A stretch of DNA of 64,000 bases from Candidatus Aminicenantes bacterium (GCA_016933515.1 JAFGAV010000049.1:338-64337), one strand, 5' to 3'; shown: positions 28,932 through 62,721, counted from the first letter of the stretch. Numbers and translations: made by a program. Notes: generated from the letters alone by a model not told the origin.

Positions 28932-29169
28932 CGTCGTAGTACCGCGCGTTTTTTCTCAGAAAGGCCCGCCCCAGCCCGAGGGCGAGCGCGATGAGGGCCA
29001 GGCAGCCGATGAAGCCGAAGAGTGCGAAAAATCCGGGGATCGATTCCCACCACGAAACGTGACGGCTTTCCCCGGGCGGGTGAAAAATCTGGAAAGCCAG
29101 GGAGAGAAAAACGAGGCCGGCGAGCGCCGTTGCGAGAGCCGCGCGCAGTATGGTTCTCACGATCGTCAT
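28924..29169 (-). CDS. Small 2-TM membrane protein embedded between MrpD paralogs
   Basis: ATG at 29169 overlaps the upstream stop (GGATGA). 81 aa: MTIVRTILRAALATALAGLVFLSLAF…IPGFFALFGFIGCLALIALALGLG…YYDDD. Its stop region overlaps the next start by 8 nt. Family not recognised. Confidence 0.45.
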   Translation of the reverse strand: MTIVRTILRAALATALAGLVFLSLAFQIFHPPGESRHVSWWESIPGFFALFGFIGCLALIALALGLGRAFLRKNARYYDDD

Positions 29170-30647: not shown

Positions 30648-32152
30648 GGGAAAACGATCTCCAGGCCGGGCGGCAGGAACCGGACGAGCAGCCCGTTGAC
30701 GATGACGGCGTTCAGAAGGCCGATGACGATCAGGGATGCGGCCAGGACCAGGGTCGGGAGGAGCATGGAGGGAGCGGCTTCGGTCCGGCCTTCGGCCTCC
30801 CGGCCTTCATTGTCCCGCAGGGCCGGCCTCAGGTAAAGCCTTTCGATCACCCGGAAAAAATACACGGCGTTGAGCAGGCTGCTGGCGAGGATCACGGCCA
30901 GGAAGACCCAGCTCCGGTTGCGGATCGTTCCCAGGGCCAAGTACCATTTGCTGAAGAAGCCCACCGTGGGCGGCAGTCCGATCATGGACAGGGCGGCCAG
31001 GGTGAAGGCGGCCGACGTCCAGGGCATGCGCCGCCGCGCTCCGCTGTCCAGGGCCCGGATGCGGGAATGGCCCAGCCGCAGGCGGAAATTCCCGGCCACG
31101 AGGAACAAGCAGGCTTTCATCAGACCGTGATTCAAGACGTGGAGAACAGCGCCCAGAAGGCCCAGCGAGTTGGCCAGGCCGATCCCCAGGCCGATGTATC
31201 CCACCTGGGCGATCGAGCTGAAGGCCAGCATGCGCTTGAGCTCGTCCTGGGCCATGGCCATGATCGAGCCGTAGAGAATGCCCGCCGCGGCCAGCCAGGA
31301 GACGACCTGGGCCAGCGGCACGGTGCGGGTGACGAAGTTCACCCCGAAGACGAAGAACAGGACGCGCAGCAGCCCGTAGGCTCCGATCTTGGTGCCGATG
31401 GGGGCCATGAGAGACGACGTGGCCGTCGGGGCGTATGTGTAGGCGTCCGGTAGCCAGCCGTGCAAAGGGAAGAGGGCCATCTTTATGCCGAATCCCAGAA
31501 CCATGAAACACAGGGCGACGATGATCTCCGGCCCGGCTCCGACCGCCGGGAGGATGGCCTTCAAGTCGGCCATGTTGAGCGATCCGCTGTTGATGTATAA
31601 GAAGCCCACGCCCAGGAGGTAAAAGCCTCCGCCGACCATGCCGATCACCAGGTAGCGAAAGGCCGCCACGGGCGACTTGCGGTCTCCCACGGCGATGAGT
31701 CCGTAAAGGGCCAAGGAAGCGATCTCCAGAAAGACGTAAAGGTTGAAGAAATCGCCGGTCAGGACGATGCCGTTGAATCCCGACATCATGAGCATGACCA
31801 GGGCGTAATACGGGACGTGCTTTCGCTCGGGAAGCTCGGCGGCGACGGTCAGGTGCGAGTGGACCAGGACGACCAGGGCCGTCAGGTTGATGACCGCGGT
31901 GATGAAGGCCGACAGGGGGTCGAGGACGTATTCGATGCCCAGGGGAGGCGGCCAGCCGCCGAAACGGTAATGAAACGTTCCGGACTCGAGGACGCGGAAA
32001 ATGTTCCAGACCGACACGGCCGCCGCGGCGGCCGCGGCCGCTATGGCCAGGACCCAAGCCAGACGCCGGACCTTGAAGGCCGCCAGGGGGATGATCAATG
32101 CGGCGAACAGGAAGATCAAGGGGGCGAGGGCCGGGGCGTTAGTCGGGATCAT
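30644..32152 (-). CDS. mrpD: Mrp/NuoM-N family antiporter subunit (MrpD-like, copy 1)
   Basis: 502 aa. …HGWLPDAYTYAPTATSSLMAPIGTKIGAYGL…LAFSSIAQVGYIGLG…HGLMKACLFL…. Confidence 0.8.
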   Translation of the reverse strand: MIPTNAPALAPLIFLFAALIIPLAAFKVRRLAWVLAIAAAAAAAAVSVWNIFRVLESGTFHYRFGGWPPPLGIEYVLDPLSAFITAVINLTALVVLVHSHLTVAAELPERKHVPYYALVMLMMSGFNGIVLTGDFFNLYVFLEIASLALYGLIAVGDRKSPVAAFRYLVIGMVGGGFYLLGVGFLYINSGSLNMADLKAILPAVGAGPEIIVALCFMVLGFGIKMALFPLHGWLPDAYTYAPTATSSLMAPIGTKIGAYGLLRVLFFVFGVNFVTRTVPLAQVVSWLAAAGILYGSIMAMAQDELKRMLAFSSIAQVGYIGLGIGLANSLGLLGAVLHVLNHGLMKACLFLVAGNFRLRLGHSRIRALDSGARRRMPWTSAAFTLAALSMIGLPPTVGFFSKWYLALGTIRNRSWVFLAVILASSLLNAVYFFRVIERLYLRPALRDNEGREAEGRTEAAPSMLLPTLVLAASLIVIGLLNAVIVNGLLVRFLPPGLEIVFP

Positions 32153-32519
32153 GTTTCAGTTTTTCCAGGAGTTCGTTTTCGTCGAGCGTCCGAAAGCGGC
32201 GCCAGATCATGATGATCAGGGCGAAGGCGACGCCCGAGGTGGCCACCCCGACGACGATGGCCGTCAGCATCAGGCAATGGGGCAGGGGATTGATGTACTT
32301 CGTCACGTCGGCCGCGCCCAGGGCCGGGTCGAGGATGGGCACGGTCGCATCCCACTTGGAGGCGCTGGCCACGAAAAAGAGAATGATGGCCACCTGGAGA
32401 ATCGACATGCCGATGACCTTTTTGATGAGGTTCCTCTTGAGGATGATGCCGGCGAGGCCGATGGTCATCAACAGGAAGATGAACCAGTAGAAATAATGGC
32501 CCACCAGGAAATCACGCAT
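32139..32519 (-). CDS. mrpC: MrpC / NuoK-like antiporter subunit
   Basis: 126 aa, 3 TM. …GLAGIILKRNLIKKVIGMSILQVAIILFFV… matches the MnhC/NuoK pattern. Confidence 0.75.
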   Translation of the reverse strand: MRDFLVGHYFYWFIFLLMTIGLAGIILKRNLIKKVIGMSILQVAIILFFVASASKWDATVPILDPALGAADVTKYINPLPHCLMLTAIVVGVATSGVAFALIIMIWRRFRTLDENELLEKLKHDPD

Positions 32520-32949
32520 CGGGCTCTCCCTCGAGCAGGTCGTCGTAGATGGCCACCAGGACGGCCATGACCGCCAGCCCGACGCCGATCTCGACCGACA
32601 GGATGCCCCACGAGCGGCGGAGAGGCGCGAGGGCGGAGAAGGGGATGAAGCCGTAGTTGAGAAACGCTCCTCCCAGGATCAGGGCCGCCAGACCGGTGCC
32701 GTAGTAGATGAGAACTCCCAGCGAGGCCAGGGGCGTGCCCAGCCGGCGCGGAAATTGGCTCTGGCCAAGCTCGGACCCTAGAGACAGGCGAAGAAGGATG
32801 ACGCTCGCCGCCAGGAGCGTCCCGCCCTGGAATCCGCCTCCCGGGCTGTAGTGGCCGTGGAAAATGACGTACAGCCCGAAAAGCATGATGAAGGGCGCCA
32901 CGAGGGACGAGATGAGGTCGATGATGGGATTGTTCTCATTCCTTCTCAT
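32512..32949 (-). CDS. MnhB-domain antiporter subunit (MbhF-like)
   Basis: 145 aa. …FIMLFGLYVIFHGHYSPGGGFQGG… is the MnhB-domain hallmark (GH..PGGGF.GG). Confidence 0.75.
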   Translation of the reverse strand: MRRNENNPIIDLISSLVAPFIMLFGLYVIFHGHYSPGGGFQGGTLLAASVILLRLSLGSELGQSQFPRRLGTPLASLGVLIYYGTGLAALILGGAFLNYGFIPFSALAPLRRSWGILSVEIGVGLAVMAVLVAIYDDLLEGEPDA

Positions 32950-33247
32950 GGCCGCTCCTTTCCCTTCGCAGGAGAAGGTAGCAGATCAGCCCGGCGGTCA
33001 GGATGACCGTCTCCTCGCCCAGAGTGTCGTAGCCCCGGTAGTCGGCCAAAATGGCCGTCACCATGTTGTCGGTGTGCGCCTCCTCCTTGGCGCGGCGGAT
33101 GTAGTGCGTCGGGGCGTTGGGCGTCCCGGCCGGGCTCGACTCCCGGTTGGTGACGCTGAGGGCGTCGCCCCGGTTGGGAAAACCCGTCGCGGCGTAGATG
33201 AGCAGGCCGCAGAAGGCGACGAGGACGAGGACGTTCGCGGCTTTCAA
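32936..33247 (-). CDS. MnhB N-terminal-part protein (MbhE-like)
   Basis: 103 aa. …NMVTAILADYRGYDTLGEETVIL… is the N.VTAIL.DYRG.DTLGE motif found at the front of MrpB/MrpA-C. The called start is TTG at 33247 and overlaps the upstream stop (TTGA). No in-frame ATG is near. Confidence 0.6.
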   Translation of the reverse strand: MKAANVLVLVAFCGLLIYAATGFPNRGDALSVTNRESSPAGTPNAPTHYIRRAKEEAHTDNMVTAILADYRGYDTLGEETVILTAGLICYLLLRRERSGHEKE

Positions 33248-33489
33248 TCCGAGCTCCTGCGGGTCGTCTTGAAAATGAGAAGGAGCAGGAGAACGCCGGT
33301 CACTCCGCCGCCGACCGTGGCCTCGGTGAACCCCACGTCCACGGCGCCCATGGCCGCGTAGAGCAGGGCCGAGATGAAGCTGAATACCGTGAGCGAAACC
33401 ACGGCCGTCAGGAGATTTTTGATCATCAGGGCGGTCACGGCGGTGATGAGCAGGACGAGGAGAAGGACGATTTCAAGCTCGGGGTGCAT
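33244..33489 (-). CDS. DUF4040-type MrpA C-terminal fragment (MbhD-like)
   Basis: 81 aa, 3 TM. …AVVSLTVFSFISALLYAAMGAVDVGFTEATVGGGVTGVL… is typical of DUF4040. The ATG immediately follows the mrpG stop (TGAATG). Confidence 0.7.
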   Translation of the reverse strand: MHPELEIVLLLVLLITAVTALMIKNLLTAVVSLTVFSFISALLYAAMGAVDVGFTEATVGGGVTGVLLLLLIFKTTRRSSD

Positions 33490-33831
33490 TCAGTCCTCTT
33501 TTTTCTCTTCCGGGGATGTGCCGGAATCATGGCGGCGGAAGCGGGGCTTGAGCCCGATCTGGAATGCCGCCCGGGCCAGGGCGTGGGTGGCGGTGGGATT
33601 GGTCAGGCCGACAAAGGTCAGGATGAGAAGGAGTTTCGCCGAGTTCAAAGTGAACCCTTCGACGAGGATGAGTCCTAGGACGAGGAGCATGACCCCCAGG
33701 GTGTCGCTCTTGCCCGTGGCGTGGCAGCGGGAGTAAAAATCGGGGAAGCGGAGGAGGCCGATGCTGCCGACGAGCAGGAAGAAAGAGCCGGCGGCCAGGA
33801 CGACCAGGGCGGCGACGTGGAGCCCGCTCAT
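33490..33831 (-). CDS. mrpG: MrpG / MnhG antiporter subunit
   Basis: ORF 33490..34092, with ATG at 33831 (ATGA overlap with the mrpF stop). MSGLHVAALVVLAAGSFFLLVGSIGLLRFPDFYSRCHATGKSDTLG… is canonical MnhG. Confidence 0.8.
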   Translation of the reverse strand: MSGLHVAALVVLAAGSFFLLVGSIGLLRFPDFYSRCHATGKSDTLGVMLLVLGLILVEGFTLNSAKLLLILTFVGLTNPTATHALARAAFQIGLKPRFRRHDSGTSPEEKKED

Positions 33832-34103
33832 TTCTTCTCCTTGCCCGAGGTAAGGTATTTGGCGATGGCGATCGTGCCGATGAAGTTCAGGACGGCGTAG
33901 GCCAGGGTGATGTCGATGAACATGTCCACCCGGTCGAAGATGAAGCCGATGAGAAGAATGAGAACCATGGTTTTGGTGCCGATGGCGCTGGCGCCCAGCA
34001 TGCGGTCGGGAAGCGTCGGGCCGGCGATGACGCGGTAGAGGGGCAGGGAGATGACGACCGTCAGGGCCGCGGCCAGAATGACGAAAAACCAATATTCAAA
34101 CAT
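33828..34103 (-). CDS. mrpF: MrpF / MnhF antiporter subunit
   Basis: 91 aa. …LPLYRVIAGPTLPDRMLGASAIGTKTMVLILLIG… is canonical MnhF. Confidence 0.8.
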   Translation of the reverse strand: MFEYWFFVILAAALTVVISLPLYRVIAGPTLPDRMLGASAIGTKTMVLILLIGFIFDRVDMFIDITLAYAVLNFIGTIAIAKYLTSGKEKK

Positions 34104-34662
34104 GGCGCGCCTTGTGGAAGATCTTGACCTCGGACACGATGTCGGCGGACTTGTCTCCGTAGAGCCGGGCCACGTGGCGGGGGAGCGAGCCGTCGATGAG
34201 GCCGGCGTGGGAGGCCTCCATGAGGGAATGGACCAGGAACTCGTCGTCCTTGATGCGCAGGGTGAGCGTTCCGGGAGTGAGGGTGATGGAGTTTCCGAGA
34301 ATGACGCGGGCGGTGATGTTGGGCAGCCGGACCCGGAACCGGACCAGGCTGGGATTGATGGGCATGCGGGGGTGGAGGACGGCGTAGGCGACTTGAAGGC
34401 TTGACAGGACGATTTGTTTCAGCAGCCAGGGGATGTAGCGCGCCAGGCGGACGACGCGAAGCGAGCGTCCGGCGGCGATGCCCTTGTCGAAATAGAGATG
34501 TCGGTTGACCCGGACATGCATCAGCGTCACGAGAAGCGCGGAGAAAACGCCGGCGCTTACGTGGAAGAGGTCGATACGCCCGCTCAGGAGAAGCCACAAT
34601 CCGAGGAGCACCGCGAACTGGAGGAGGGTCCCCTTGAGAAAGGCTTTTTTCACGCGTGACAT
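34096..34662 (-). CDS. mrpE: MrpE / MnhE antiporter subunit
   Basis: ORF 34096..34686 begins at a GTG. The ATG at 34662 (MSRVKKAFLKG…) is an alternative, and neither has a clear SD. …LWLLLSGRIDLFHVSAGVFSALLV… and …NSITLTPGTLTL… fit MnhE. First gene of the operon. Confidence 0.7.
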   Translation of the reverse strand: MSRVKKAFLKGTLLQFAVLLGLWLLLSGRIDLFHVSAGVFSALLVTLMHVRVNRHLYFDKGIAAGRSLRVVRLARYIPWLLKQIVLSSLQVAYAVLHPRMPINPSLVRFRVRLPNITARVILGNSITLTPGTLTLRIKDDEFLVHSLMEASHAGLIDGSLPRHVARLYGDKSADIVSEVKIFHKARHV

Positions 34663-34748
34663 CCGATGCCGGGAATAAGAAAACACTTACTTAGCACAAG
34701 AAAATCCCCTTGTCAAAAAAGCGGATTCGGCCGCCTAGGCCCGGCGGC

Positions 34749-53973: not shown

Positions 53974-55188
53974 TCAGTCTTTGTTCTCCTCCTCGACGGT
54001 TTCCCGAAGGCGTTCGAGAAGGCCGGGCACGGCGGAGGAGATGCGGTTCCAGTTGGGGATCAGCGGGGAATAGAGGGGGTTGTCCAGGAAATCCTGTCCG
54101 GCCATCTGCAGGGCCCGGGTGAAGGCCTCGACCGTGACCATCTCCTGATGAACGTCGAACTTCAGGCCGTTGATGGCGGCGTCGTCTCCGTGGCGGCTGA
54201 CCATGTCCTTGGCCGTGCGCAGGTAATTCGTGACCAGCGTCCTCATCGCGCTCTCACTGAGGACGATGCCTTCCACGGCCAGGTTGCGGAAAATGGACTT
54301 GGCGATGTCGATGGCCATCTTCATCAGCCCCGTCCGGGGATCGTCGGCCGAGAGGGACTGGTGCTTGTGCTCGTAGGTCTCGCACAGCTCGACTTGGCAG
54401 ATGCGCTTCAGAGAGTAATTGCGGTAGACCTCGGCCAGCGTTTCGATTTCCAGCCCCCAGTCGCTGGGGATGCGGTTGATGCGGGCCAGCTCGGTCAACA
54501 TCGAGAACTCTCCGGCCAGGGGATATCGGAAACTGTCCAGATACACAAGGAAGGGGAGATGGCCGAGCAGCCGGATCAGACTTCTGATGACCGGCGTGAC
54601 GAACAGCCGAGTGACGCGGCCGTGCATCCGGTCGGTGACCCGGGCGTAGTACCCCTTGCAGAAGGAATGATCCATGGCCGGCGAGGCGACGGGATAGCAC
54701 AGCCTGGCCAGGAGCTCGCGCGAATGGTTGACGATGTCGCAGTCATGAAGAGCGACGACTCGGCTTTCATCCCGGGCGAGGATGTAGCCGTAGGCCGTCC
54801 AGGCCGAACGGCCTTTGCCGTCTCCTCCGGCTGACAGCCCGTGTTCCTCGAGGCTTCGATACAGGGCGTTGAACGACGGCCCCGAGGCCCAGATGATGCG
54901 GTGGCGCTGGGGGAGGGCGGAGAAAAAGGCTTTGGCTCGGCGGAAATGGGATTCCTCGGAGGTCCGGCCCAGCGTGATGACGATCTCATTGAGATAGCGC
55001 ACCTCCTTGAGGTTTTTCATGATGACCGCGATGGCCGGCGAGTCCATCTCCGTGGGGGTGATGGGCAGCACGAGGGCGATGGGATTGTGACGGTTGAAAC
55101 CGGCAAGCTCCTTCTCGATCCTCTCCACGTCGGTCGGGCCGAAACGGTGGAAAGTGGTGATGACTCCGCTCTGGTGCAGGTCGGCCAT
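53974..55188 (-). CDS. Glucosyl-/mannosyl-3-phosphoglycerate synthase-like retaining glycosyltransferase (GpgS/MpgS family)
   Basis: 404 aa. …IALVLPITP…, …GDGKGRSAWTAYGYI…, …VALHDCDI…, …HGRVTRLFVTPVIRSL…, …YPLAGEFSMLTELARINRIPSDWGLEIETLAEVY…, …QVELCETYEHKHQ… This parallels the conserved blocks of GpgS/MpgS enzymes. I cannot decide the donor sugar from sequence. Confidence 0.65.
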   Translation of the reverse strand: MADLHQSGVITTFHRFGPTDVERIEKELAGFNRHNPIALVLPITPTEMDSPAIAVIMKNLKEVRYLNEIVITLGRTSEESHFRRAKAFFSALPQRHRIIWASGPSFNALYRSLEEHGLSAGGDGKGRSAWTAYGYILARDESRVVALHDCDIVNHSRELLARLCYPVASPAMDHSFCKGYYARVTDRMHGRVTRLFVTPVIRSLIRLLGHLPFLVYLDSFRYPLAGEFSMLTELARINRIPSDWGLEIETLAEVYRNYSLKRICQVELCETYEHKHQSLSADDPRTGLMKMAIDIAKSIFRNLAVEGIVLSESAMRTLVTNYLRTAKDMVSRHGDDAAINGLKFDVHQEMVTVEAFTRALQMAGQDFLDNPLYSPLIPNWNRISSAVPGLLERLRETVEEENKD

Positions 55189-55212
55189 GAAGCCCTCCTT
55201 TGCGGCGAGATT

Positions 55213-56049
55213 TCAGTCCCGGCCCGAAGCCTCCGGCCCGATGAGATGAAAAACGGCCTCCCTCCAGCCGGCCGGCCCGGGGCCGGGCGCGAGGATGAGT
55301 CCGGGGAGATCGATCCCGGGCTCAAAAGCGCCGTCGGGCGCCGGCAGAAGGACCGGAATGTCCGATTCCCGGAGGAGAGGAAAATCGTTCGGGCCGTCGC
55401 CCAGGCCGATGACGCGAACCGGCCCTTGATCCCTGACGAACATTTCCTTCAACCGTCGGACGGCCAGGCCCTTGTCGTGTGGGCCGAGGAGATGATGAAA
55501 ACGGCCGCCCGAGACGATCCGCCATCCCGAGGCCTCGGCTTTTTGCTTCAGGAGGGAGAGGGCCGCGTCGTCGTCGGCGAGGATGGGCTCGTCGAACTCC
55601 CGCTGCCGGGCGAGCCGGGCCCGTTCCACGGAGAAGCCGCACAGCCGCGCCACCTCCTCGTCGGACATGTCCCCGAAACCCCGCACCCGGTCCGGCCGTT
55701 CCGCCTGAAATTCGGACAGAAACGCCCTGAGAGCGGCGTAAGGGACTCCGAGTTCCAGAACCTCGTACCCCTCCCTGTCGACGGCATGGGGAATGTCGAA
55801 GGAAAATGTGCCGTGGGGGACATAGACAGCCCCGCCGTTTTCGCTGATAAAGGGATGCCGGTTTCGCAAGGACCGGCGCAGGGGTTCGATTTCCGCCCGG
55901 GTCTTGCTGCTGCAGATGATGAGAGGGATGCGCCTCTTCTCCAGCGCCCGGAGGGCGGGCCGGGCTTCGTCGAAGGAATACGTGACGGCGTCGAGCAGAG
56001 TCCCGTCCAGGTCGGTGAAAACGAGAAGGGTCTTTGCCGCCGTTCGCAT
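55213..56049 (-). CDS. Mannosyl-/glucosyl-3-phosphoglycerate phosphatase (HAD-IIB, MpgP/YedP family)
   Basis: …LLVFTDLDGTLLD… (motif I), …LIICSSKTRAE… (motif II) and …GLGDGPNDFPLL… (motif IV). Overall collinear with the YedP/MpgP family. It lies 24 nt upstream of the synthase gene. Confidence 0.8.
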   Translation of the reverse strand: MRTAAKTLLVFTDLDGTLLDAVTYSFDEARPALRALEKRRIPLIICSSKTRAEIEPLRRSLRNRHPFISENGGAVYVPHGTFSFDIPHAVDREGYEVLELGVPYAALRAFLSEFQAERPDRVRGFGDMSDEEVARLCGFSVERARLARQREFDEPILADDDAALSLLKQKAEASGWRIVSGGRFHHLLGPHDKGLAVRRLKEMFVRDQGPVRVIGLGDGPNDFPLLRESDIPVLLPAPDGAFEPGIDLPGLILAPGPGPAGWREAVFHLIGPEASGRD

Positions 56050-56143
56050 TCAACGAAGTCCGTTTCCCCTCGGCCGTCGTCCGCCCGCTCCTCCCCACGA
56101 CGCCGCGGCGTCGCTCTTGGGAACCGGGCGCTTGCGCGTCTGT

Positions 56144-56171
56144 TTGAAAAACCAAACGCTGGCATTATAAT
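56144..56171 (+). promoter_or_regulatory. Candidate promoter for the GT2 gene
   Basis: TTGAAA(56144-56149), 16 nt, TATAAT(56166-56171). About 95 nt upstream of the ATG at 56269. Confidence 0.5.
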
Positions 56172-56195
56172 AATTTCTTCCTGCGGACTTGTCAA
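56167..56195 (-). promoter_or_regulatory. Candidate promoter for the phosphatase-synthase operon, sharing its -10 with the plus-strand promoter
   Basis: On the minus strand: TTGACA(56195-56190), 17 nt, TATTAT(56172-56167). The -10 hexamers of both strands fall in the same ATTATAATAAT core. Confidence 0.5.
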
Positions 56196-56268
56196 AGTCC
56201 CGGATCTGAGGTTCCGGCCGCCGGGCGGCATCCGGCCCCCGGAAACGTTGCGAAGGGAGTTGTTCGCT

Positions 56269-57525
56269 ATGGGCTACAACACGGCGTTGCGCGGCTACAC
56301 GGCCAAGAGGCTGGAGGAAATCGGTTCGGCCGATCTTCTGGTCGGCATCCCCTGTTACAACAACGAGCAGACGATCTCTCACGTCATCCAGACGGTCACT
56401 CACGGGTTGGCCCGTCACTTCGGCGGCCTCCGCTGCGTGATCCTGGTCGCCGACGGCGGTTCGACAGACGACACGCGGGAGACGGCCAGGGATTTTCAGA
56501 TCAAGCCCTGGCAGGAAAAAGTCGTCTCGATCTACCGGGGGCCGGCGGGCAAGGGCACGGCGCTGCGGTCGGTCTTCGAGGCGGCCGACATGCTTAACGT
56601 CCAGGCCTGCGCCGTAGTGGACGCCGACCTGCGGAGCATCACCTCGGACTGGGTGCGCTGCCTCCTCGATCCCGTGCTCGAAAAAGGCTACCAGTTCGTC
56701 GCACCGGTGTACCTCCGGCACAAGTACGACGGGACGATCACCAACAACATCGTCTACTGCCTGACCCGGGCGCTTTACGGCCTGCGCGTCCGCCAGCCGA
56801 TCGGGGGAGACTTCGCCTTTTCGCGCGATGTGGCCGAATTTTTCGCCGGCAAGCGCGTCTGGGAAACGGACGTGGCCCGCTACGGGATCGACATCTGGAT
56901 GACGACCATGGCCATCACGTCCGGTTTCAAGGTCTGTCAGTCCAACCTGGGAGTCAAGATCCACGACGCCAAGGATCCCGGCCAGCATCTGGGTCCGATG
57001 TTCCGGCAGGTCATGTGGGTTCTTCTGTCTCTGATGGAGGAATTCGAGGGTTATTGGAAAGCCGTCCGGGGCAGCCGTTCCGTGGAGACGTTCGGGTTCG
57101 AGGGGACTCTTCGGCCTGAGCCCATCGAAGTCGATCTCTCCGGGATCGTCGAACGGTTCCAGACGGGATTCGGCCATTTCGGATCGCTGTGGAAGGATTT
57201 GTTCTCCGCGGACTGCTTCGAGGAGATTCGGAGGGCCGCCGAACTCAAGGCCGGGGAATTCACCTTCCCCCTGGAGACCTGGATCCGGATCCTTTACGAG
57301 CTCGCGGCGACGTTCCACGCCTGGAAGCGCAACCGTTTCAAGATCGTGGAGATCGTCACTCCCTTGTATTACGCCCGGGTGGCGTCGTTCGTCCGCCAGA
57401 CCCTGGACATGAGCTCGGAAGAGGCGGAAAGCCTCGTCGAGGATCAGGCGCTGAAGTTCGAGGAGGAGAAAGACTATCTCATCCGCGTCTGGGACGAGCG
57501 CCGGGACGTCGCCGAGCCGCAATAG
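56269..57525 (+). CDS. GT2-family glycosyltransferase, candidate glycosyl-glycerate-type synthase
   Basis: ORF 54841..57525, with homology starting at ATG 56269. …LLVGIPCYNNEQTISHVIQ…VADGGSTDDTRE…GKGTALRS…AVVDADLRSI…QPIGGDFAFSRD… (GT-A fold, DxD). The upstream 476 codons are antisense to the two preceding genes. Assignment to glucosylglycerate / mannosylglucosylglycerate synthases is by context and vague recollection only. Confidence 0.55.
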   Translation: MGYNTALRGYTAKRLEEIGSADLLVGIPCYNNEQTISHVIQTVTHGLARHFGGLRCVILVADGGSTDDTRETARDFQIKPWQEKVVSIYRGPAGKGTALRSVFEAADMLNVQACAVVDADLRSITSDWVRCLLDPVLEKGYQFVAPVYLRHKYDGTITNNIVYCLTRALYGLRVRQPIGGDFAFSRDVAEFFAGKRVWETDVARYGIDIWMTTMAITSGFKVCQSNLGVKIHDAKDPGQHLGPMFRQVMWVLLSLMEEFEGYWKAVRGSRSVETFGFEGTLRPEPIEVDLSGIVERFQTGFGHFGSLWKDLFSADCFEEIRRAAELKAGEFTFPLETWIRILYELAATFHAWKRNRFKIVEIVTPLYYARVASFVRQTLDMSSEEAESLVEDQALKFEEEKDYLIRVWDERRDVAEPQ

Positions 57526-57618: not shown

Positions 57619-57647
57619 TTGACAGAGATGAACCGATAACATATCAT
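57619..57647 (+). promoter_or_regulatory. Candidate promoter, with an overlapping inverted repeat, for the opine-DH / mutase-like / AsnB-like cluster
   Basis: TTGACA(57619-57624), 17 nt, TATCAT(57642-57647). The inverted repeat CCGAT(57633-57637)…ATCGG(57646-57650) straddles the -10. The outer GATGA…TCATC arms (57627-57631 / 57660-57664) flank it. Confidence 0.45.
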
Positions 57648-57727: not shown

Positions 57728-58849
57728 ATGACCATTTTGACGTCTTGTCTCGAGGGAAAGAAGCCGAATTTCTGCGTGCTGGGCGCGGGGCACGGCGGCA
57801 TGGCCATGGCCGCGCACCTGTCTCTCCTGGGATTTACGGTGAACCTGTTCAACCGCACCGAAGCCCGCATCGTGCCCGTTCAGCAGAGAGAAGGCATATC
57901 GCTTTCGGGAGAGATCGAGGGATTCGGCCACGTGCGGATCGCGACTTCCGACATCGCCGAAGCGCTCGAGGACAGCGATATCCTCATGGTCGTCGTTCCG
58001 GCCGTAGGGCATCGTTATATGGCCGAAGTCTGCGCGCCCCATCTTCGAGACGGACACGTCGTCGTGCTCAACCCGGGCCGGACCCTGGGCGCCCTCGAGT
58101 TCAAACAGGTTCTCAAGGAAAAGGGCTGCCGGGCGGACGTCGTCATCGGGGAGACGCAGAGCCTTCTTTACGCCTCCCGAGCCATCGGTCCCGGAGAAGT
58201 GAGGATTTTCCGCATCAAGAACTCCGTTCCCCTGGCCACGATCCCGGCCCACAGGATCCCGGAAGTTCTCAAGGTCGTCCGGCAAGCCATTCCCCAGTTC
58301 GTTCCGGGGACCAACATCTTCAAGACGAGCTTCGACAACATCGGCGCCGTCTTCCACCCGGCCATAACCATCCTCAACGCCTCATGGATCGAAGAGCGAG
58401 TGGATTTCGAGTTTTACATGCAGGGGATCAGCGCCTCGGTCTGTCTCATCATGGAAAAGATGGACGAGGAGAGGGTTGCCGTCGCCGAAGCCCTCGGGAT
58501 CCACGCCTTGACGGCACGGGAATGGCTCTACCGCGCCTACCACGCCACAGGAAAAAACCTTTACGATGCCATGATGGACAATCCCGGCTACCGCGACATC
58601 ATGGCCCCCAAGACCTTGAAGGTCCGCTACATCACCGAGGACGTTCCCATGAGCCTCGTCCCCATGGCGTCCCTGGGTCGGATGCTGGGCGTTCCCACGC
58701 CGACCATGGACACCTTCATCCACCTGGCCTCGGTGATCCATAATTGCGATTACATGACCGAAGGCCGGACGGTCGAGCGCCTGGGCATAGACGGCATGTC
58801 GATCAAGGATCTGCGGCTCCTGGCCCTCGGCGAGGAGACGTCGCCGTGA
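57728..58849 (+). CDS. NAD(P)-dependent opine (octopine/nopaline) dehydrogenase-family oxidoreductase
   Basis: N-terminal Rossmann …FCVLGAGHGGMAMAAHLSLLG…. …ILMVVVPA..H…, …GETQSLLYASR…, …NIGAVFHPAITILNASWIE… is collinear with the opine dehydrogenase family. 373 aa. Confidence 0.65.
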   Translation: MTILTSCLEGKKPNFCVLGAGHGGMAMAAHLSLLGFTVNLFNRTEARIVPVQQREGISLSGEIEGFGHVRIATSDIAEALEDSDILMVVVPAVGHRYMAEVCAPHLRDGHVVVLNPGRTLGALEFKQVLKEKGCRADVVIGETQSLLYASRAIGPGEVRIFRIKNSVPLATIPAHRIPEVLKVVRQAIPQFVPGTNIFKTSFDNIGAVFHPAITILNASWIEERVDFEFYMQGISASVCLIMEKMDEERVAVAEALGIHALTAREWLYRAYHATGKNLYDAMMDNPGYRDIMAPKTLKVRYITEDVPMSLVPMASLGRMLGVPTPTMDTFIHLASVIHNCDYMTEGRTVERLGIDGMSIKDLRLLALGEETSP

Positions 58850-60504
58850 AGGCCGGGAAAATCCTGGGCGCGTCTCTCGGGGCCTGCGTTCACGTCGCCG
58901 GCATCCAGGGATTTCTGAGAATGTGCGAGGAGGAAGGATACGAAACGGTCTTCCTGGGTCCGGCCGTCTCTCCACGGGCTCTTGCCGAGGCCGTGGACAA
59001 GCACAGGCCCGGGATCGTCGCCGTGAGCTACAGGCTCACGCCCGAGGCGGCCGAGCCCCTGTTGCGGGAACTGAAGAGCCTCCTCGGGGACAAGATCCGG
59101 TCCGGTCTGCGTTGCGTTTTCGGCGGCACGGCCCCTGTGGCTGCGGTGGCGGAGCGAACGGGGCTTTTTGAGCGCGTTTTTTCCGGAACGGAATCCCCGG
59201 ACGAGATCCGTTCTTACATCAAGGGCGAAAAACCGCGGGCCGGAGTCGGAGACTATCCGGCCGACCTGGTCGGCCGGATCAGGCGATTCCATCCGTTTCC
59301 TCTCATCCGCCACCATTTCGGGAGGCCGACGCTGGAAGAGACCGTTGCCGGGGCGGAGCGGATCGCGGAGGCCGGCGTCCTGGATGTCCTGTCCATCGGT
59401 CCGGACCAGAACGCCCAGGAGAGTTTTTTCCGGCCCGCCGAGATGGAGCCCGCCCAGGACGGAGCCGGAGGCGTTCCCCTGCGCCGTCCCGAGGACCTGG
59501 AAGCCGTTTATCAGGCCGTCCGCCGGGGAAATTTTCCTCTGGTCCGCTGCTACAGCGGCACGCGCGACCTCGACAAATGGGCCGAAATGAGCCTCCGGAC
59601 GATCAATATCGCCTGGGCGGCCATCCCCTTATGCTGGTACAGCGATCTCGACGGCCGCTCGAACCGGCCTCTCAGGGAGGCGATGGCAGAGAATCTCCGC
59701 GTCATCCGTTGGTACGCGGAAAAAGGGATTCCGGTTGAAGTCAACGAGTCGCACCAGTGGAGCCTGAGAAACGCCCATGACACGCTGGCCGTAGTCATGG
59801 CTTTCCTGGCCGCTTACAACGCCAAGGCGGCGGGCGTCCGCCATTATGTGGCGCAATACATGTTCAATACGCCCGCCGGAACGTCGCCGTCCATGGACCT
59901 GGCCAAGATGCTGGCCAAGATCGAGCTCATCGAAGGGCTGGCCGATAAGAGCTTCTCCGTATTTCGGGAGGTCCGGGCCGGGCTTTCGAGCATGCCGGCG
60001 GATTTCGCGGCCGCCAAGGGCCACCTGGCGGCATCGGGAGCCGTCAGCATGTCCCTGGATCCCCATATCTACCATGTGGTCGGGTATAGCGAGGGCGATC
60101 ACGCCATCACGGCCGACGAGCTCATCGAAAGCTGCCGGATCGCCCGCGGTGCCGTCGCGCTCTGCCTCCTCGGCCTTCCCGACCCGTCCTGCGACCCGGC
60201 CGTTCAGGAGAGAAAGGCGGAGCTGATCGCCGAAGCGCATGTGCTTCTCGATGCCTTGAAGGAGCTCGGACAGAAAGAAAGCGGAGACCCGTGGACGAAT
60301 CCGCGGGTCCTGGCGGAAGCGGTTGAAAAGGGGGTTCTGGATACGCCTCATTTTAAAGCGCACCGCTTCGCCCGCGGCCGCGTCGTGACCCGCATCGTCG
60401 GGGGGGCGTGCCGGGCCGTCGATCCCCGGACGGGCGAGCCGATTTCGGAGACGCAGCGCCTGGCCTCTCTGGGGAGAGACGACGACGCCGCTCGGGGCGG
60501 CTGA
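58846..60504 (+). CDS. Fusion of a B12-binding domain with a glutamate-mutase E-subunit-like TIM barrel (putative cobalamin-dependent mutase, unknown substrate)
   Basis: GTG at 58846 overlaps the upstream stop (GTGA) and follows GGAGA. The N-terminal ~130 aa are flavodoxin-like, with …GASLGACVHVAGIQ… (CxHxxG in place of DxHxxG). The rest aligns by eye with GlmE blocks: EKPRAGV, …AGVLDVLSIGPDQNAQE…, …FPLVRCYSGTRD…, …NESHQW…, …LAVVMAFLAAYNAKAAGVRHYV…. No searches were run. Confidence 0.45.
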   Translation: MKAGKILGASLGACVHVAGIQGFLRMCEEEGYETVFLGPAVSPRALAEAVDKHRPGIVAVSYRLTPEAAEPLLRELKSLLGDKIRSGLRCVFGGTAPVAAVAERTGLFERVFSGTESPDEIRSYIKGEKPRAGVGDYPADLVGRIRRFHPFPLIRHHFGRPTLEETVAGAERIAEAGVLDVLSIGPDQNAQESFFRPAEMEPAQDGAGGVPLRRPEDLEAVYQAVRRGNFPLVRCYSGTRDLDKWAEMSLRTINIAWAAIPLCWYSDLDGRSNRPLREAMAENLRVIRWYAEKGIPVEVNESHQWSLRNAHDTLAVVMAFLAAYNAKAAGVRHYVAQYMFNTPAGTSPSMDLAKMLAKIELIEGLADKSFSVFREVRAGLSSMPADFAAAKGHLAASGAVSMSLDPHIYHVVGYSEGDHAITADELIESCRIARGAVALCLLGLPDPSCDPAVQERKAELIAEAHVLLDALKELGQKESGDPWTNPRVLAEAVEKGVLDTPHFKAHRFARGRVVTRIVGGACRAVDPRTGEPISETQRLASLGRDDDAARGG

Positions 60505-60628
60505 CGCGCTCCTTCCGGGTGGATGGGCATGGCCTTGCGATAAAGACAAGGAAGATAAACATGAGAAAGGACGATACGTGATAGGGAAAATTCTGAGAGA
60601 ACATCGCGCCGGGGCAGGAGATTGAACC

Positions 60629-62092
60629 ATGGCCGGTATCGCAGGAATTGAAGGACCGGGAGCGAGGGCTCTCGTCGAGTCCATGCTCGACGCCGTAGCC
60701 CACCGCGGACCGGACGGCCGCAGCGTGCATGCCGGAGACGGATTCGCCTTCGGGATGATCGCTTTGACCGCCGGGCCGAACGCCGCGGCCGAACCCCTGA
60801 ACCGGAAAGGAACGACCGTCGTCTGGGACGGAGAGCTTTACAATTTTCAAGAGCTTCAGGCGGCTTCGGGCTTCGAAGCCGTTTCCGATGAAGATCTCAT
60901 CCTGAGGCTCTACACCGAGGAGGGTGCCGGTTTCCTGGGGCGGCTCAACGGCCCGTTCGCCCTGGCGATCCGCGACGGCGACCGGACCGTCCTGGCCCGC
61001 GACCCCATGGGACAGGCGCCGTTGTATTGGGGCGCTCTCGACGGCCGGATCTGTTTCGCCTCGGAAATGAAATCCCTCCAGAAGGCCACGGAGGATATCA
61101 ACGCCTTCCCGCCGGGATACGTTTTCGACGGCGAACTCCGGCGGATCGAGATCGATGCCGGAGAGCCGGCCGTGCCGGAACATCCGGATGCCGCCGCCGC
61201 GGGGTTGCTCCGGCTCCTGGAGCGGGCTGTGGAAATTCGTTCTGCCGGCGGCCGTCCCCTCGGAAGCTGGCTCAGCGGAGGACTCGATTCGGCGACCATG
61301 GCCGCCCTGGCTTCCCGCTACCGGTCGCCGCTTCTGACGTTCTCCGCCGGCATGGAGGGCGCCCCCGACCTGTCTTTCGCCAGAAAGACCGCCGCTTACC
61401 TCGGCACGGAGCACCATGAGGTCCTTTACGGGCTCGAAGACATGCTGAGAGTCCTGCCCCGCGTCATCTACCATCTCGAATCCTTCGACGCGCCGCTCGT
61501 GCGGAGCTCGGTGGCCAATTTCCTTGTGGCCGAGCTGGCCTCAAAGCACGTCCGGTCCGTTCTTTCGGGCGAGGGCGGCGACGAGCTTTTCGCTGGCTAC
61601 AGCTACCTCAAATCGCTGTCCGGAGAAGAAATGCCCGCCGCTCTGTCCGACGCGCAGAAGGCCCTGTCGAACACGGCTCTGCAGAGAGTGGATCGGATGG
61701 CCGCCGCCCACGGCACGAGAGCGCGGACGTGTTTCCTCGACCCGGAGGTCGCGGCATACGCCAACGCCGTGCCCGCGAAATGGAAAATCCATGGAGAGGG
61801 GAAGGTCGAAAAATGGATCCTTCGCCAAGCGCTTGAAGGCCGCCTGCCGGAAGAAATCCGGATGCGTCCCAAGGAAAAATTCTGGTCGGGTTCGGGGATC
61901 GAGGGGAAGCTGGCCGAAGTCGCCGAATCCCAAATCGGCGACGACGCCTTCGCCGCCGAGAAGAAGATTGCGCCCGGCCTTCTCCTGACCTCCAAGGAGG
62001 ATCTTTTCTACTACCGTATCTTCCGCGGCTTTTTCCCCTCTCCGAAGGCCGTTCAAGCCCTGGGCGTGACCCTGCATCGGCAAGGGAACTGA
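60629..62092 (+). CDS. Asparagine-synthetase-B-family adenylating enzyme lacking the N-terminal Cys nucleophile
   Basis: GGAGA lies 7 nt upstream. An in-frame TGA two codons upstream fixes the start. The N-terminus is MAGIAG (canonical MCGIxG). The Ntn-like domain is retained (…NGPFALAIRDGDRTVLARDPMGQAPLYWG…). PP-loop SWLSGGLDSATMAAL. …LSGEGGDELFAGYSY…. Confidence 0.8.
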   Translation: MAGIAGIEGPGARALVESMLDAVAHRGPDGRSVHAGDGFAFGMIALTAGPNAAAEPLNRKGTTVVWDGELYNFQELQAASGFEAVSDEDLILRLYTEEGAGFLGRLNGPFALAIRDGDRTVLARDPMGQAPLYWGALDGRICFASEMKSLQKATEDINAFPPGYVFDGELRRIEIDAGEPAVPEHPDAAAAGLLRLLERAVEIRSAGGRPLGSWLSGGLDSATMAALASRYRSPLLTFSAGMEGAPDLSFARKTAAYLGTEHHEVLYGLEDMLRVLPRVIYHLESFDAPLVRSSVANFLVAELASKHVRSVLSGEGGDELFAGYSYLKSLSGEEMPAALSDAQKALSNTALQRVDRMAAAHGTRARTCFLDPEVAAYANAVPAKWKIHGEGKVEKWILRQALEGRLPEEIRMRPKEKFWSGSGIEGKLAEVAESQIGDDAFAAEKKIAPGLLLTSKEDLFYYRIFRGFFPSPKAVQALGVTLHRQGN

Positions 62093-62121: not shown

Positions 62122-62721
62122 CTATTTGCCTTTGCGCACCATGAGCATCCGGCCCAGGATGCCCAATCGTCCGCTCGGCGGGGCCAGGGGATAGACTCCT
62201 TTTTTGGCCCGGCGGACGTCTTCGACTGTGTAGAACGCTTTGGGGTTGATGGCCTGGATGATCGCGACGAGCTCCGGAAGGTCCTTGCGCTTGATGATGG
62301 TGAAGATCACCTTGACCGGCCCCACCGCGCCTTCTCCCTCGAGGACCGTCAGCCCGTATCCCCGGGCTTTCAGCTTGGAGATCATCTCTTCGGTGCCCGA
62401 TTTGGCGATGACGCGGACGACCTGCATGCCGATGGCCAGCCGGTTCTCGATGGCCATTCCGACGAAATTGCCGCCCGCGAATCCGGCTGCGTAGGCGATG
62501 TAGCATAAGGGATTGGCGAGGTTCTTGAAGATCTGGCTGATGGCCAGGAGCCAGATCAGGACTTCGAAGAATCCCATGAGGGGGGCCAGAAACCTCTTGT
62601 CACGCGAAATGAAAATGATCCTTAACGTCCCCAGGGAGACGTCGATGATGCGGGCGGTGAAGATCAACAGAGGGAGGACCACCCAGGGGAACAGCGGCGA
62701 ATTAGAGATCTGTTCGAACAT
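62122..62721 (-). CDS. UPF0316-family membrane protein (DUF5698 + DUF2179 domains)
   Basis: 199 aa. …LIFTARIIDVSLGTLRIIFISRDKRFLAPLMGFFEVLIWL… plus the C-terminal ferredoxin-like …GYGLTVLEGEGAVGPVKVIFTIIKRKDL…INPKAFYTVEDV…. Confidence 0.7.
   Translation of the reverse strand: MFEQISNSPLFPWVVLPLLIFTARIIDVSLGTLRIIFISRDKRFLAPLMGFFEVLIWLLAISQIFKNLANPLCYIAYAAGFAGGNFVGMAIENRLAIGMQVVRVIAKSGTEEMISKLKARGYGLTVLEGEGAVGPVKVIFTIIKRKDLPELVAIIQAINPKAFYTVEDVRRAKKGVYPLAPPSGRLGILGRMLMVRKGK

Follow-up and report, generated by a model that had tools for sequence, protein, structure and literature searches.

A predicted B12-dependent operon for opine-type solute synthesis in Candidatus Aminicenantes and other anaerobes

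Introduction

What could an opine dehydrogenase, a B12-binding protein resembling glutamate mutase, and a homologue of asparagine synthetase produce together? The question is raised by three adjacent genes near one end of a 64-kb window (the whole stretch of DNA analysed) from a Candidatus Aminicenantes bacterium. The original prediction had pointed out that no characterised pathway with this gene set was known to it, and none was found in the literature; a literature search for expression or metabolite data on the cluster found nothing either. What is already known is the gene pair, described in 2009 with an unknown role, and the dehydrogenase subclass, studied in vitro without genomic context. 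The pair, Hore_09740/Hore_09750 of Halothermothrix orenii, was presented as a putative operon, characterised only as having an unknown role and belonging to hot anaerobic habitats, and its B12 protein was likened to methionine synthase (Mavromatis et al. 2009, PMC2626281). Gene for gene this is the pair studied here, a dehydrogenase and a B12 protein (H. orenii has the orthologue P0420, and locus L169 the same gene order), but the mutase fold, the AsnB partner and the osmotic context were not recognised in that paper. The dehydrogenase subclass is represented by the mODHs, which were assembled from hot-spring reads and studied as biocatalysts, apart from any genomic setting or role in the cell (Telek et al. 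2024, PMC10787698).

The reading developed below is that the operon probably makes a new small organic solute from glutamate and pyruvate, by way of a vitamin B12 enzyme of an undescribed family. That the three genes form a single biosynthetic operon, most likely for a small nitrogenous organic solute serving osmotic adaptation, is proposed at somewhat less than even odds.

Results and Discussion

Organization of the locus

All three genes are on the + strand. Gene 1 (57728..58849, 373 aa) codes for a predicted NADPH-type opine dehydrogenase of the acidic-amino-acid (mODH) subclass, gene 2 (58846..60504, GTG start, 552 aa) for a predicted AdoCbl-dependent mutase of an uncharacterised family, and gene 3 (60629..62092, 487 aa) for a predicted AsnB-type adenylating amide synthetase with an inactivated glutaminase domain. 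The layout is as first described: genes 1 and 2 overlap by 4 nt (GTGA at 58846-58849), the GTG start of gene 2 lying on the stop of gene 1, and the spacing between genes 2 and 3 was again measured as 124 nt. Homologue alignments back the start codons chosen for genes 2 and 3. The gap of about 200 nt noted ahead of the co-directional trio is a leader of 202 nt, counted from the end of the preceding gene at 57525, and it does carry TTGACA-17-TATCAT, a sigma-70-like promoter candidate on the + strand (57619..57647, with TTGACA at 57619) that matches the consensus at 11/12 positions. A promoter scan of the 5.5-kb region returned 2 sites, compared with 0.6 expected from shuffles, while an Rfam search of the leader and intergenic regions matched no family.

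The dehydrogenase

Judged by its sequence, gene 1 is a genuine opine dehydrogenase. The GAGHGG Rossmann motif and the opine dehydrogenase-like blocks seen originally are borne out by the N-terminal motif VLGAGHGG, by a match to Pfam Octopine_DH (PF02317) at 1.2e-48 (165 bits, with a cut-off of 30), and by a full-length alignment to the Arthrobacter opine dehydrogenase (ArODH, 1BG6) at 1e-81 and 39% identity. Three sets of functional residues are shared with ArODH and the mODHs. The catalytic His/Asp/Arg are represented by H210, D305 and R300, which align with the catalytic H202 and D297 and with the substrate-carboxylate Arg R292 of ArODH; the His and Arg are found in 133/133 mutase-linked homologues and the Asp in 132/133. 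The Arg-111/Gly-198 pair corresponds to R118 and G206, both kept in all 133 of these homologues. The third is the NADPH marker Arg-35, equivalent to R43, which is present in 67/68 homologues of the operon's cluster type.

A double-mutant swap at ArODH positions 111/198 switched specificity to L-Asp/L-Glu with pyruvate (PMC10787698), and the characterised mODH-45, -47 and -48, which are 46-52% identical to gene 1, use Asp better than Glu (PMC10787698). This preference fits an aspartate-like substrate such as 3-methylaspartate, a compound that was not among the mODH substrates assayed in that study. The preference predicted for gene 1, an acidic amino acid with pyruvate, is carried over from these published experiments on homologues. 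A further difference is that gene 1 is the obligate partner of a B12 mutase, whereas the genomic setting of the mODHs was not given.

The B12 protein

Gene 2 combines a B12-binding Rossmann domain (approximately residues 1-112) with a GlmE-like TIM barrel and C-terminal domain (approximately residues 150-552). The former exceeds the gathering cut-off of Pfam B12-binding (8e-11). Matches to Met_asp_mut_E (PF06368), sub-threshold or at threshold, occur in many gene 2 homologues, among them P0139, a relative at 44% identity, with 27.5 bits; gene 2 itself reaches 17.2 bits (cut-off 26.6), over profile positions 157-391 only. With an AF2 model of gene 2 (pLDDT 85), the top PDB matches in Foldseek were 1cb7_B (E 2e-14) and 6h9e_B (1e-13), at TM 0.56-0.64, and after GlmE came OAM, MCM and KAM, i.e. 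only AdoCbl isomerases. Alignment to the GlmE family with hhalign gave 70% probability (E 4e-5) for a span that covers only residues 324-535 of gene 2 on GlmE 237-439; it includes a GVLDxPF motif common to both, and places E416 of gene 2 on GlmE E329/330. The suggestion that a B12-binding domain is joined to a region resembling the glutamate mutase E subunit consequently stands at the level of fold (1cb7_B) and profile (hhalign), but not at that of the Met_asp_mut_E model, which stays below its cut-off. Profile and structure searches placed gene 2 among the AdoCbl isomerases, GlmE being nearest, and in no unrelated characterised family.

Compared with GlmS/GlmE of Clostridium cochlearium (1CB7/1CCW/1I9C), gene 2 has the same Rossmann module, the same His16 position, and the same TIM barrel with C-terminal domain, and its wider family is likewise associated with the GlmL reactivase. 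It differs in being one polypeptide, in S-E order, and the structure-based identity is 17-18%. Invariant in the gene 2 family are G12-x-C14-x-H16-x-x-G19, S61-Y-R-L and F92-G-G. The DxHxxG cobalamin signature is incomplete, with the Asp replaced by the invariant Cys14 while His16, Gly19, SxxL and GG are kept; paralogous subfamilies retain D-x-H-T-x-G. In the substrate half of the barrel no alignment with GlmE was obtained, single-sequence alignment leaves the β3 region ambiguous, and the family invariants R144, R155, R234, Y236, R271 and E298 have no set correspondence to GlmE Arg66, Arg100, Arg149 and Glu171. This means that the substrate of the mutase is a guess.

Gene 2 was also considered as a canonical glutamate mutase, an assignment that was rejected given the sub-threshold Pfam score, the unalignable substrate half and the change from Asp to an invariant Cys. 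Gene 2 lacks several defining traits of glutamate mutase, so that any substrate named for it is putative. The genetic linkage differs as well: the gene 2 family is linked to an opine dehydrogenase and never to methylaspartate ammonia-lyase. Neither GlmL nor methylaspartate ammonia-lyase was found when both were sought in 80 related genome loci. GlmL is fused or adjacent in a sister subfamily only, where methylaspartase is absent too; there, distant relatives of gene 2 are fused to the reactivase, and a separate GlmL lies nearby in L103-105.

The AsnB homologue

Gene 3 is, as far as its conserved residues predict, an AsnB whose glutaminase site is dead but whose adenylation site is intact. Its AsnB-type character, SGGLDS motif and MAGIAG N-terminus were all present as reported, with Pfam matches to Asn_synthase (2e-65) and GATase_7 (4e-21). 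It passes TIGR01536 (286 bits, cut-off 267), and falls below PRK09431 (387 bits, cut-off 499); the AsnB and AsnO equivalog cut-offs are both missed. Of the structures compared, E. coli AsnB (1CT9) is closest at 4e-64, with β-lactam synthetase at 4e-25 and CarA at 7e-15. The Ntn-amidotransferase and PP-loop adenylating architecture is shared with AsnB, and the adenylation site is intact, with SGGLDS, SGEGGDE and E348 conserved. Unlike AsnB, the glutaminase site has Cys1 and Arg49 changed to Ala and Asn74 to Asp (Asp98 is kept), and the segment is deleted in most gene 3 orthologues. The Thr-Thr that binds Asp is likewise replaced, x-L-V-R-S standing in place of T-T-I-R-A (Thr322/Thr323 lost), a change common to all cluster-linked orthologues.

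Cys1 is absent from about 40 of 50 cluster-linked AsnB orthologues, in which the glutaminase site is destroyed or deleted. Eight cluster-linked orthologues have a complete site (Cys1, Arg49, Asn74, Glu76, Asp98) together with the same altered synthetase-site signature. This combination implies that NH3 is transferred and a carboxamide formed; the lactam product once envisaged is disfavoured on the same grounds. Gene 3 is comparable to AsnO (TIGR03104), the NAGGN amidotransferase, since it would likewise close solute synthesis by amidating a carboxylate. Amidation is also suggested by a variant locus, where an ATP-grasp ligase is fused to the mutase and the next gene encodes a class-I GATase/C26 protein.

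Distribution and gene neighbourhood

The conserved gene set is widespread, occurring in about 500 species, mostly anaerobic, and genes for coping with salt stress usually lie beside it. Among 80 species-level genome loci the dehydrogenase is present in 79, almost always directly upstream of the mutase, and the AsnB homologue in 58 (by tblastn), lying directly downstream in 46 of the 77 loci with called genes. The loci come from at least 12 phyla, so that the co-occurrence survey proposed at the outset did find the trio together across many of them. None of the outcomes named beforehand as counting against the prediction was observed. Hosts are Acidobacteriota/Aminicenantes, Bacteroidota, Ignavibacteria, Planctomycetota, Bacillota, Desantis-, Fraser- and Firestonebacteria, Hydrogenedentota, Armatimonadota, Nitrospirota, Deltaproteobacteria and Asgard archaea. 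The pair is also present in the cultured halophilic anaerobes H. orenii and Anoxybacter fermentans, and in Halanaerobiales loci it is followed by a Crp-type regulator, without AsnB.

Immediately upstream of the operon, and outside it, are a GpgS-like synthase (53974-55188, − strand; NCBIfam NF040724, 338 bits, below cut-off), an MPGP-family phosphatase (55213-56049, − strand; TIGR01486, 239 bits, above cut-off) and a GT2/MGS_GT-like glycosyltransferase (approximately 56269-57525, + strand; Pfam Glycos_transf_2, MGS_GT); an Mrp antiporter is found elsewhere in the window. In the closest relative, L088, this compatible-solute adjacency is not conserved and the locus has no osmotic neighbours. 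Across the 77 loci, neighbours include MscS (20), an SLC12-like permease (12), MarC (9), an OtsA-OtsB fusion (7), ClC (7), Na+/H+ exchangers (6) and a GT2-HAD (MGS_GT) gene (5), although related Bacteroidales with shared synteny contribute many of the osmotic-neighbour counts, which are consequently not independent. Osmotic-stress neighbours (MscS, OtsAB, GT2-HAD, ClC, Na/H, CCC) nevertheless recur in at least nine phylum-level lineages. An osmolyte role, at first rated as weakly favoured, is considerably strengthened by the recurrence of MscS, OtsAB, GpgS-type, Na/H, ClC and CCC neighbours; a metallophore, another early option, finds no support, as no CntL/nicotianamine-synthase-type, TonB or metal genes are nearby.

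To our knowledge, NMR surveys of organic solutes in Petrotoga and Thermosipho, genera named as carriers of the pair, have reported no opine-type solute, which speaks against the osmolyte role. In its favour, the authors of the H. orenii genome could identify no pathway for making glycine betaine or ectoine, and their only candidate for solute synthesis was a sucrose-phosphate synthase (PMC2626281).

A proposed pathway

What the analysis shows directly are families and folds, conserved residues, gene linkage and neighbourhoods; from these we infer what the mutase acts on, in which order the steps run, what is made, and that it serves as an osmolyte. Gene 2 would act as an AdoCbl-dependent, base-off/His-on carbon-skeleton mutase with a glutamate-mutase-like barrel, converting a glutamate-type into a 3-methylaspartate-type skeleton, its substrate being L-glutamate, in free form or as the glutamyl half of an opine. 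Gene 1 would use NADPH to join pyruvate to the acidic amino acid through its amino group, giving an N-(1-carboxyethyl) derivative, and this coupling would pull the otherwise unfavourable equilibrium of the mutase. Gene 3 would adenylate the side-chain carboxylate and then form a carboxamide from free ammonium, which would remove one negative charge and make the pathway irreversible. The product would be of the N-(1-carboxyethyl)-3-methylasparagine type. Dehydrogenase and mutase would constitute an obligatory, reversible core, with amidation as an accessory that is gained and lost. A diverged version of this core, fused to a GlmL reactivase and mostly without the NADPH marker, seems to serve a related route that other organisms run catabolically. 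The overall reading, from glutamate through a 3-methylaspartate-type skeleton and an N-(1-carboxyethyl) opine to an amide used as osmolyte, is given a probability of roughly 0.4. The predicted product without the amide would have a net charge of -2, an uncommon value for a compatible solute.

Alternative explanations

Marine invertebrates deprived of oxygen reoxidise NAD(P)H with opine dehydrogenase, which condenses pyruvate with an amino acid. A fermentative redox valve of this kind, with the mutase supplying or regenerating the acceptor from glutamate and the opine excreted or stored as an end-product, would suit hosts that are nearly all fermentative anaerobes, a MarC membrane protein that follows AsnB in nine loci and could export the product, and the Crp/FNR-type regulator placed after the pair in Halanaerobiales. 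It is unlikely, given that the NADPH marker is nearly invariant in the cluster type whereas glycolytic redox balancing uses NADH, that an ATP-consuming amidation would be wasteful for an end-product, and that the neighbours are osmotic rather than glycolytic or fermentative. No more likely is catabolism or salvage, in which the dehydrogenase would oxidatively cleave an imported opine-like compound and the mutase turn the released branched amino acid into glutamate. Both core reactions are reversible, and the GlmL-fused sister subfamily adjoins transporters, peptidases and an amidohydrolase; its loci encode an RpiR regulator, an SBP_bac_5 ABC transporter, a TRAP transporter, C45 and C26 peptidases and the amidohydrolase. 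Next to the pair in the window and the 80 related loci, however, there are no uptake systems or hydrolases but an ATP-dependent amide synthetase, and gene 1 has the NADPH marker that most transporter-type enzymes lack (Pro at this position in 51/65 dehydrogenase homologues).

A bioactive metabolite is a distinctly poorer explanation, whether gene 3 cyclises the β-carboxylate of an N-substituted aspartyl group with its secondary amine into a monocyclic β-lactam or the opine is a staphylopine-type metal chelator. Carboxyethylarginine is the substrate of β-lactam synthetase, and CntM-type opine dehydrogenases make metallophores; the β-carboxylate/secondary-amine geometry of an N-alkyl-aspartate matches that of carboxyethylarginine, and gene 3 lacks Cys1, as do β-lactam synthetase and CarA. 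Yet the eight same-signature orthologues with a full glutaminase site deliver NH3, gene 3 is far nearer to AsnB than to either lactam-forming enzyme, no resistance, nicotianamine-synthase-like, TonB or metal-transport genes are linked, and the broad, single-copy spread across phyla is unlike that of a specialised natural-product cluster. Least probable of all is that gene 2 is a corrinoid-dependent methyltransferase that methylates or demethylates an amine, for example in making or degrading a betaine-type solute. Database names for gene 2 ('methionine synthase', 'MtgC-like') point that way, its B12 domain is nearest in sequence to the corrinoid proteins 4jgi, 1y80 and MttC (NCBIfam MtgC, 21.6 bits), and TIM barrels also form the catalytic modules of methyltransferases. 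In corrinoid methyltransferase proteins, however, a helical cap domain precedes the Rossmann domain, and since the B12-binding match begins at residue 4 of gene 2 there is no room for one. Further arguments against it are that the top Foldseek matches are all AdoCbl isomerases with no methyltransferase barrel, that profile homology to GlmE, PF06368 matches in homologues and GlmL-reactivase fusions all indicate a mutase, and that no RamA-type activase or partner methyltransferase is linked.

Biological significance

More tentative than the pathway itself is the proposal that gene 2 founds a new AdoCbl mutase family, with Cys-x-His in place of Asp-x-His and always working with an acidic-amino-acid opine dehydrogenase, and that its product belongs to a new class of compatible solutes, opine-type, N-carboxyethyl, branched and amidated. 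If this is true, such solutes would be made by abundant uncultured anaerobes among the Bacteroidales, Aminicenantes, Ignavibacteria, Asgard archaea and Halanaerobiales, and other organisms would consume them through a mirror-image catabolic module. The availability of vitamin B12 would then be a determinant of salt tolerance in anoxic sediments.

Operon structure

Three genes follow one another on the forward strand of the window: gene 1, for an opine dehydrogenase (57728–58849, 373 aa); gene 2, for a B12-domain protein with a GlmE-like barrel (58846–60504, 552 aa, GTG start); and gene 3, for an AsnB homologue (60629–62092, 487 aa). The GTGA shared by genes 1 and 2 comprises the stop codon of the one and the start codon of the other, gene 3 follows after 124 nt, and the starts of genes 2 and 3 are backed by homologue alignments. 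The leader before gene 1 is 202 nt long (the preceding gene ends at 57525) and carries a promoter candidate, TTGACA-17-TATCAT (57619–57647, forward strand, 11/12 match); where 0.6 promoter-like sites would be expected in 5.5 kb, the scan gave 2. ORF calls and promoter scan agree with the co-directional trio behind a gap of about 200 nt described in the original prediction, whose sequence-level observations, including the 4-nt overlap and the 124-nt gap, were confirmed in every detail. Neither the leader nor the spacers of the operon match any Rfam family, and searches for riboswitches or leader RNAs (by E-value over 52–64 kb, and at the gathering threshold over the whole window) returned one tRNA only. 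A gene for a DUF5698/DUF2179 membrane protein (62122–62721, reverse strand) is convergent to gene 3; a counterpart (14594–15193) lies downstream of and convergent to the trio in L088, the locus of the closest relative, with one extra gene between. This proximity is probably synteny only.

Opine dehydrogenase

The assignment of gene 1 to the opine dehydrogenase family is borne out by a Pfam Octopine_DH match (1.2e-48) and an end-to-end alignment with the Arthrobacter enzyme ArODH (1BG6; 1e-81, 39% identity), in which the catalytic residues H210, R300 and D305 prove to be conserved. Telek et al. (2024, PMC10787698) characterised six enzymes of a hot-spring subclass (mODH), outside their genomic context. 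With pyruvate as the partner, L-aspartate is the preferred substrate of these enzymes and L-glutamate comes second; reciprocal double mutants established that Arg at ArODH position 111 and Gly at 198 fix this preference, and the same study showed NADPH use to be marked by an Arg at position 35. Because all three determinants are present in gene 1 (R118, G206 and R43), and it is 46–52% identical to mODH-45, -47 and -48, it is placed in this subclass. R118 and G206 are invariant in 133/133 dehydrogenases that adjoin a gene 2-family mutase. Judged from sequence, gene 1 likely couples an acidic L-amino acid to pyruvate with NADPH, giving an N-[(R)-1-carboxyethyl] amino acid.

The B12-domain protein

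The only significant Pfam match in gene 2 is an N-terminal B12-binding domain (8e-11). Met_asp_mut_E scores 17 bits, under the cut-off, and PDB sequence searches with the single sequence and the family profile matched corrinoid B12 domains only, not GlmE. An AlphaFold2 model (38 homologues as input, pLDDT 85) has a Rossmann domain (about residues 1–112), a linker, an eight-stranded barrel and a C-terminal domain. Its top match in a Foldseek search of the PDB is glutamate mutase E (1cb7_B, E 2e-14, TM 0.56/0.63), followed by ornithine 4,5-aminomutase, methylmalonyl-CoA mutase and lysine 5,6-aminomutase. With a GlmE family profile, for which the glmS-glmL-glmE genes of E. coli O157 Sakai served as reference, hhalign gives the gene 2 superfamily a probability of 70% (E 4e-5), over gene 2 residues 324–535 and GlmE 237–439, that is, the C-terminal half only, with the substrate-binding half unaligned; against a single GlmE sequence hhalign gives 2%. 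The profile alignment contains a common GVLDxPF motif and sets gene 2 E416 against GlmE E329/330, the adenosyl-ribose ligand. The predicted likeness to GlmE thus stands at the level of fold and profile, but not by the Pfam model.

An exhaustive search yields 773 representatives at 50% clustering, and the nearest relative of gene 2 is from an Acidobacteriota MAG (84% identity). The family has an invariant signature, G12-x-C14-x-H16-x-x-G19, S61-Y-R-L and F92-G-G, in which Cys always replaces the Asp that glutamate mutase has in DxHxxG, whereas distant paralogues of about 620 aa retain D-x-H-T-x-G. Such paralogues (P0176, P0202, P0213 and similar, about 600–636 aa) have the same B12-domain and barrel architecture; they have no NCBIfam match, and none in Pfam that exceeds the cut-off. 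Some of the 773 representatives (P0154, P0158) carry GlmL/MutL, the reactivase of glutamate mutase, as a fusion, and one (P0139) a GshB/RimK-type ATP-grasp ligase. Together, the fold, profile, signature and GlmL fusions place gene 2 among the AdoCbl isomerases, where glutamate mutase is its nearest kin although gene 2 itself falls outside that enzyme.

AsnB homologue

Gene 3 resembles E. coli AsnB most (4e-64) and is much less similar to β-lactam synthetase (4e-25) and CarA (7e-15); it scores above the TIGR01536 cut-off and below the AsnB equivalog model. It retains the PP-loop and Glu348, but three glutaminase residues are replaced (Cys1 by Ala, Arg49 by Ala, Asn74 by Asp), in keeping with the Cys-less AsnB-type enzyme that had been predicted, and the aspartate-site sequence T-T-I-R-A reads x-L-V-R-S. 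Related loci supplied 50 AsnB homologues, of which 49 are cluster-linked. Cys1 is missing from about 40, most of these with the Asn74–Asp98 segment deleted, and in eight the glutaminase site is complete and L-V-R-S is present nonetheless. An unlinked AsnB paralogue in one locus is without this signature. Since L-V-R-S occurs with and without the glutaminase site, the same synthetase site would be fed by glutamine-derived or free ammonia, which argues for a carboxamide product of gene 3, not a lactam.

Distribution and gene neighbourhood

Homologues of gene 2 form >7,400 clusters at 90% identity, and relatives occur in 498 of 185,579 species-representative genomes. In the best 80 loci of these 498 genomes, the dehydrogenase is present in 79, nearly always immediately upstream of the mutase, and an AsnB homologue in 58, as the next gene after the mutase in 46. 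Hosts belong to at least 12 phyla, Asgard archaea included, and the cultured ones are Rosettibacter primus, Halothermothrix orenii and Anoxybacter fermentans. The trio thus co-occurs in other genomes, a point that the original prediction had wanted checked, and we have high confidence that it is a genuine, conserved functional unit. The amidation step is accessory, since among closely related loci of Bacteroidales, whose flanks are identical, the one difference is whether an AsnB gene is there. Loci without AsnB have no consistent replacement third-step enzyme among their neighbours, which include Lrp/PyrD synteny, DapF/aminotransferase, IorA, an RraA-like fusion and a Crp regulator. One single-contig locus (L171, 35–4463) encodes an opine dehydrogenase, a mutase that continues C-terminally into an ATP-grasp ligase of the GshB/RimK type and, after it, a Peptidase_C26/class-I GATase; the ligase and the GATase may be a non-homologous amide route replacing the AsnB step, or a ligase/hydrolase pair. 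In two other loci without AsnB (L065, 12822–14147, and L075), a gene that follows the mutase fuses a hexulose-phosphate-synthase/OMP-decarboxylase-like domain, recognised by eye, to an RraA-like domain (HMG/CHA aldolase or oxaloacetate decarboxylase family), and might act on a (methyl)oxaloacetate-type intermediate.

About 1,000 ORFs adjoining the cluster in 77 loci were clustered and representatives annotated. Genes with osmotic roles recur: MscS channels (20/77), an SLC12-like permease (12), MarC directly after AsnB (9), an OtsA-OtsB fusion (7), ClC channels (7), Na+/H+ exchangers (6) and GT2-HAD proteins resembling mannosylglycerate synthase (5), counts that are partly non-independent, as many come from related Bacteroidales. 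Independent examples are found in Deltaproteobacteria (trehalase, OtsA, CBS, Na/H), Desantisbacteria (CBS, Na/H, MscS), Fraserbacteria, Planctomycetota, Ignavibacteria, Clostridia and Nitrospirota; this recurrence in unrelated lineages favours the osmolyte option of the original prediction. In the window, divergently arranged genes upstream of the trio (53974–57525) encode a glucosyl-3-phosphoglycerate synthase resembling GpgS, with a score under the equivalog cut-off, as well as a phosphatase of the MPGP family and a second glycosyltransferase, of GT2/MGS_GT-like type. This set suggests glucosylglycerate or mannosylglucosylglycerate synthesis; its adjacency to the trio is absent in L088. A complete Mrp/Mnh-type multisubunit cation/proton antiporter operon (27204–34686, reverse strand; three Proton_antipo_M, MnhC-like Oxidored_q2, MnhB and MNHE subunits) gives these 64 kb a second system for salt/pH homeostasis, in a region of strong GC and AT skew.

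A sister subfamily fused to GlmL

In a subfamily 33–35% identical to gene 2, proteins of about 1,225 aa join the B12 domain and GlmE-like barrel to the GlmL reactivase (e.g. 10001–13672 in L098). By tblastn, 67 of 80 metagenomic loci sampled (L089–L168) have a divergent opine dehydrogenase, 24–28% identical to gene 1 and directly upstream of the mutase in 52. Neighbours include RpiR regulators (28 loci), SBP_bac_5 ABC transporters (binding protein in 27, other components in 26 and 23), C45 peptidases (15), C26 peptidases, TRAP transporters and amidohydrolases. The sister dehydrogenases keep Arg118 and Gly206, but the NADPH-marker position is Pro in 51/65, versus Arg in 67/68 of those from AsnB-type loci. 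Methylaspartate ammonia-lyase accompanies neither locus type (80 loci each), and no GlmL was found next to the 80 AsnB-type clusters. We read the two enzymes as a reversible core, anabolic in AsnB-type loci because of NADPH, ATP-driven amidation and osmotic neighbours, and catabolic in sister loci because of uptake systems, hydrolases and the reactivase.

Proposed pathway and alternatives

In the favoured order, the mutase would interconvert glutamate and 3-methylaspartate, an equilibrium that favours glutamate; the dehydrogenase would pull the reaction by NADPH-dependent coupling to pyruvate, an aspartate-type substrate being in line with the preference of characterised homologues for a four-carbon aspartate backbone; and AsnB would amidate the β-carboxylate. 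With this order the pair alone could give a defined product. Alternatively, the dehydrogenase might act on glutamate first and the mutase on the opine, with the same product. We infer every step, and give the full model a tentative probability of about 0.4.

A fermentative redox sink fits less well, as does a catabolic role for the window trio, with its NADPH-type dehydrogenase and AsnB. The lactam that the original prediction had allowed for is down-weighted, as the synthetase-site signature also occurs in the eight orthologues with intact glutaminase. A corrinoid methyltransferase, to which the corrinoid B12-domain matches of gene 2 might point, is down-weighted as well, there being no methyltransferase barrel among the top Foldseek PDB matches of the model. 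A metallophore product and chance adjacency of the three genes were considered and likewise given little weight beside the pathway from glutamate to an amidated opine.

Novelty and implications

The enzyme superfamilies of the trio are already known. The pair Hore_09740/09750 of Halothermothrix orenii was recorded as a putative operon of unknown role (Mavromatis et al. 2009, PMC2626281), and full-text literature searches found no paper on the trio, in accord with the earlier statement that no pathway with this gene set had been characterised. What appears new is that the B12 protein is recognised as a family of GlmE-like mutases bearing a Cys-x-His motif, and that an opine dehydrogenase of the Asp/Glu type is its universal partner. 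The specialised AsnB partner, osmotic context and anabolic/catabolic duality likewise appear new.

For B12 enzymology, a new substrate would be of interest, as would the change in the cobalt-ligand dyad. To our knowledge, only about a dozen types of adenosylcobalamin isomerase are known. The pathway would provide a physiological role for the mODH enzymes, so far characterised only as biocatalysts, and the 2009 question on Hore_09740/09750 becomes directly testable in cultured organisms. If true, the model gives a further pathway, and probably also a new solute, to lineages whose salt strategy is largely unknown, uncultured anaerobes and the Halanaerobiales among them; for the latter, 'salt-in' versus organic solutes is still debated. 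The paired anabolic and catabolic versions suggest a public-good metabolite exchanged in sediments.
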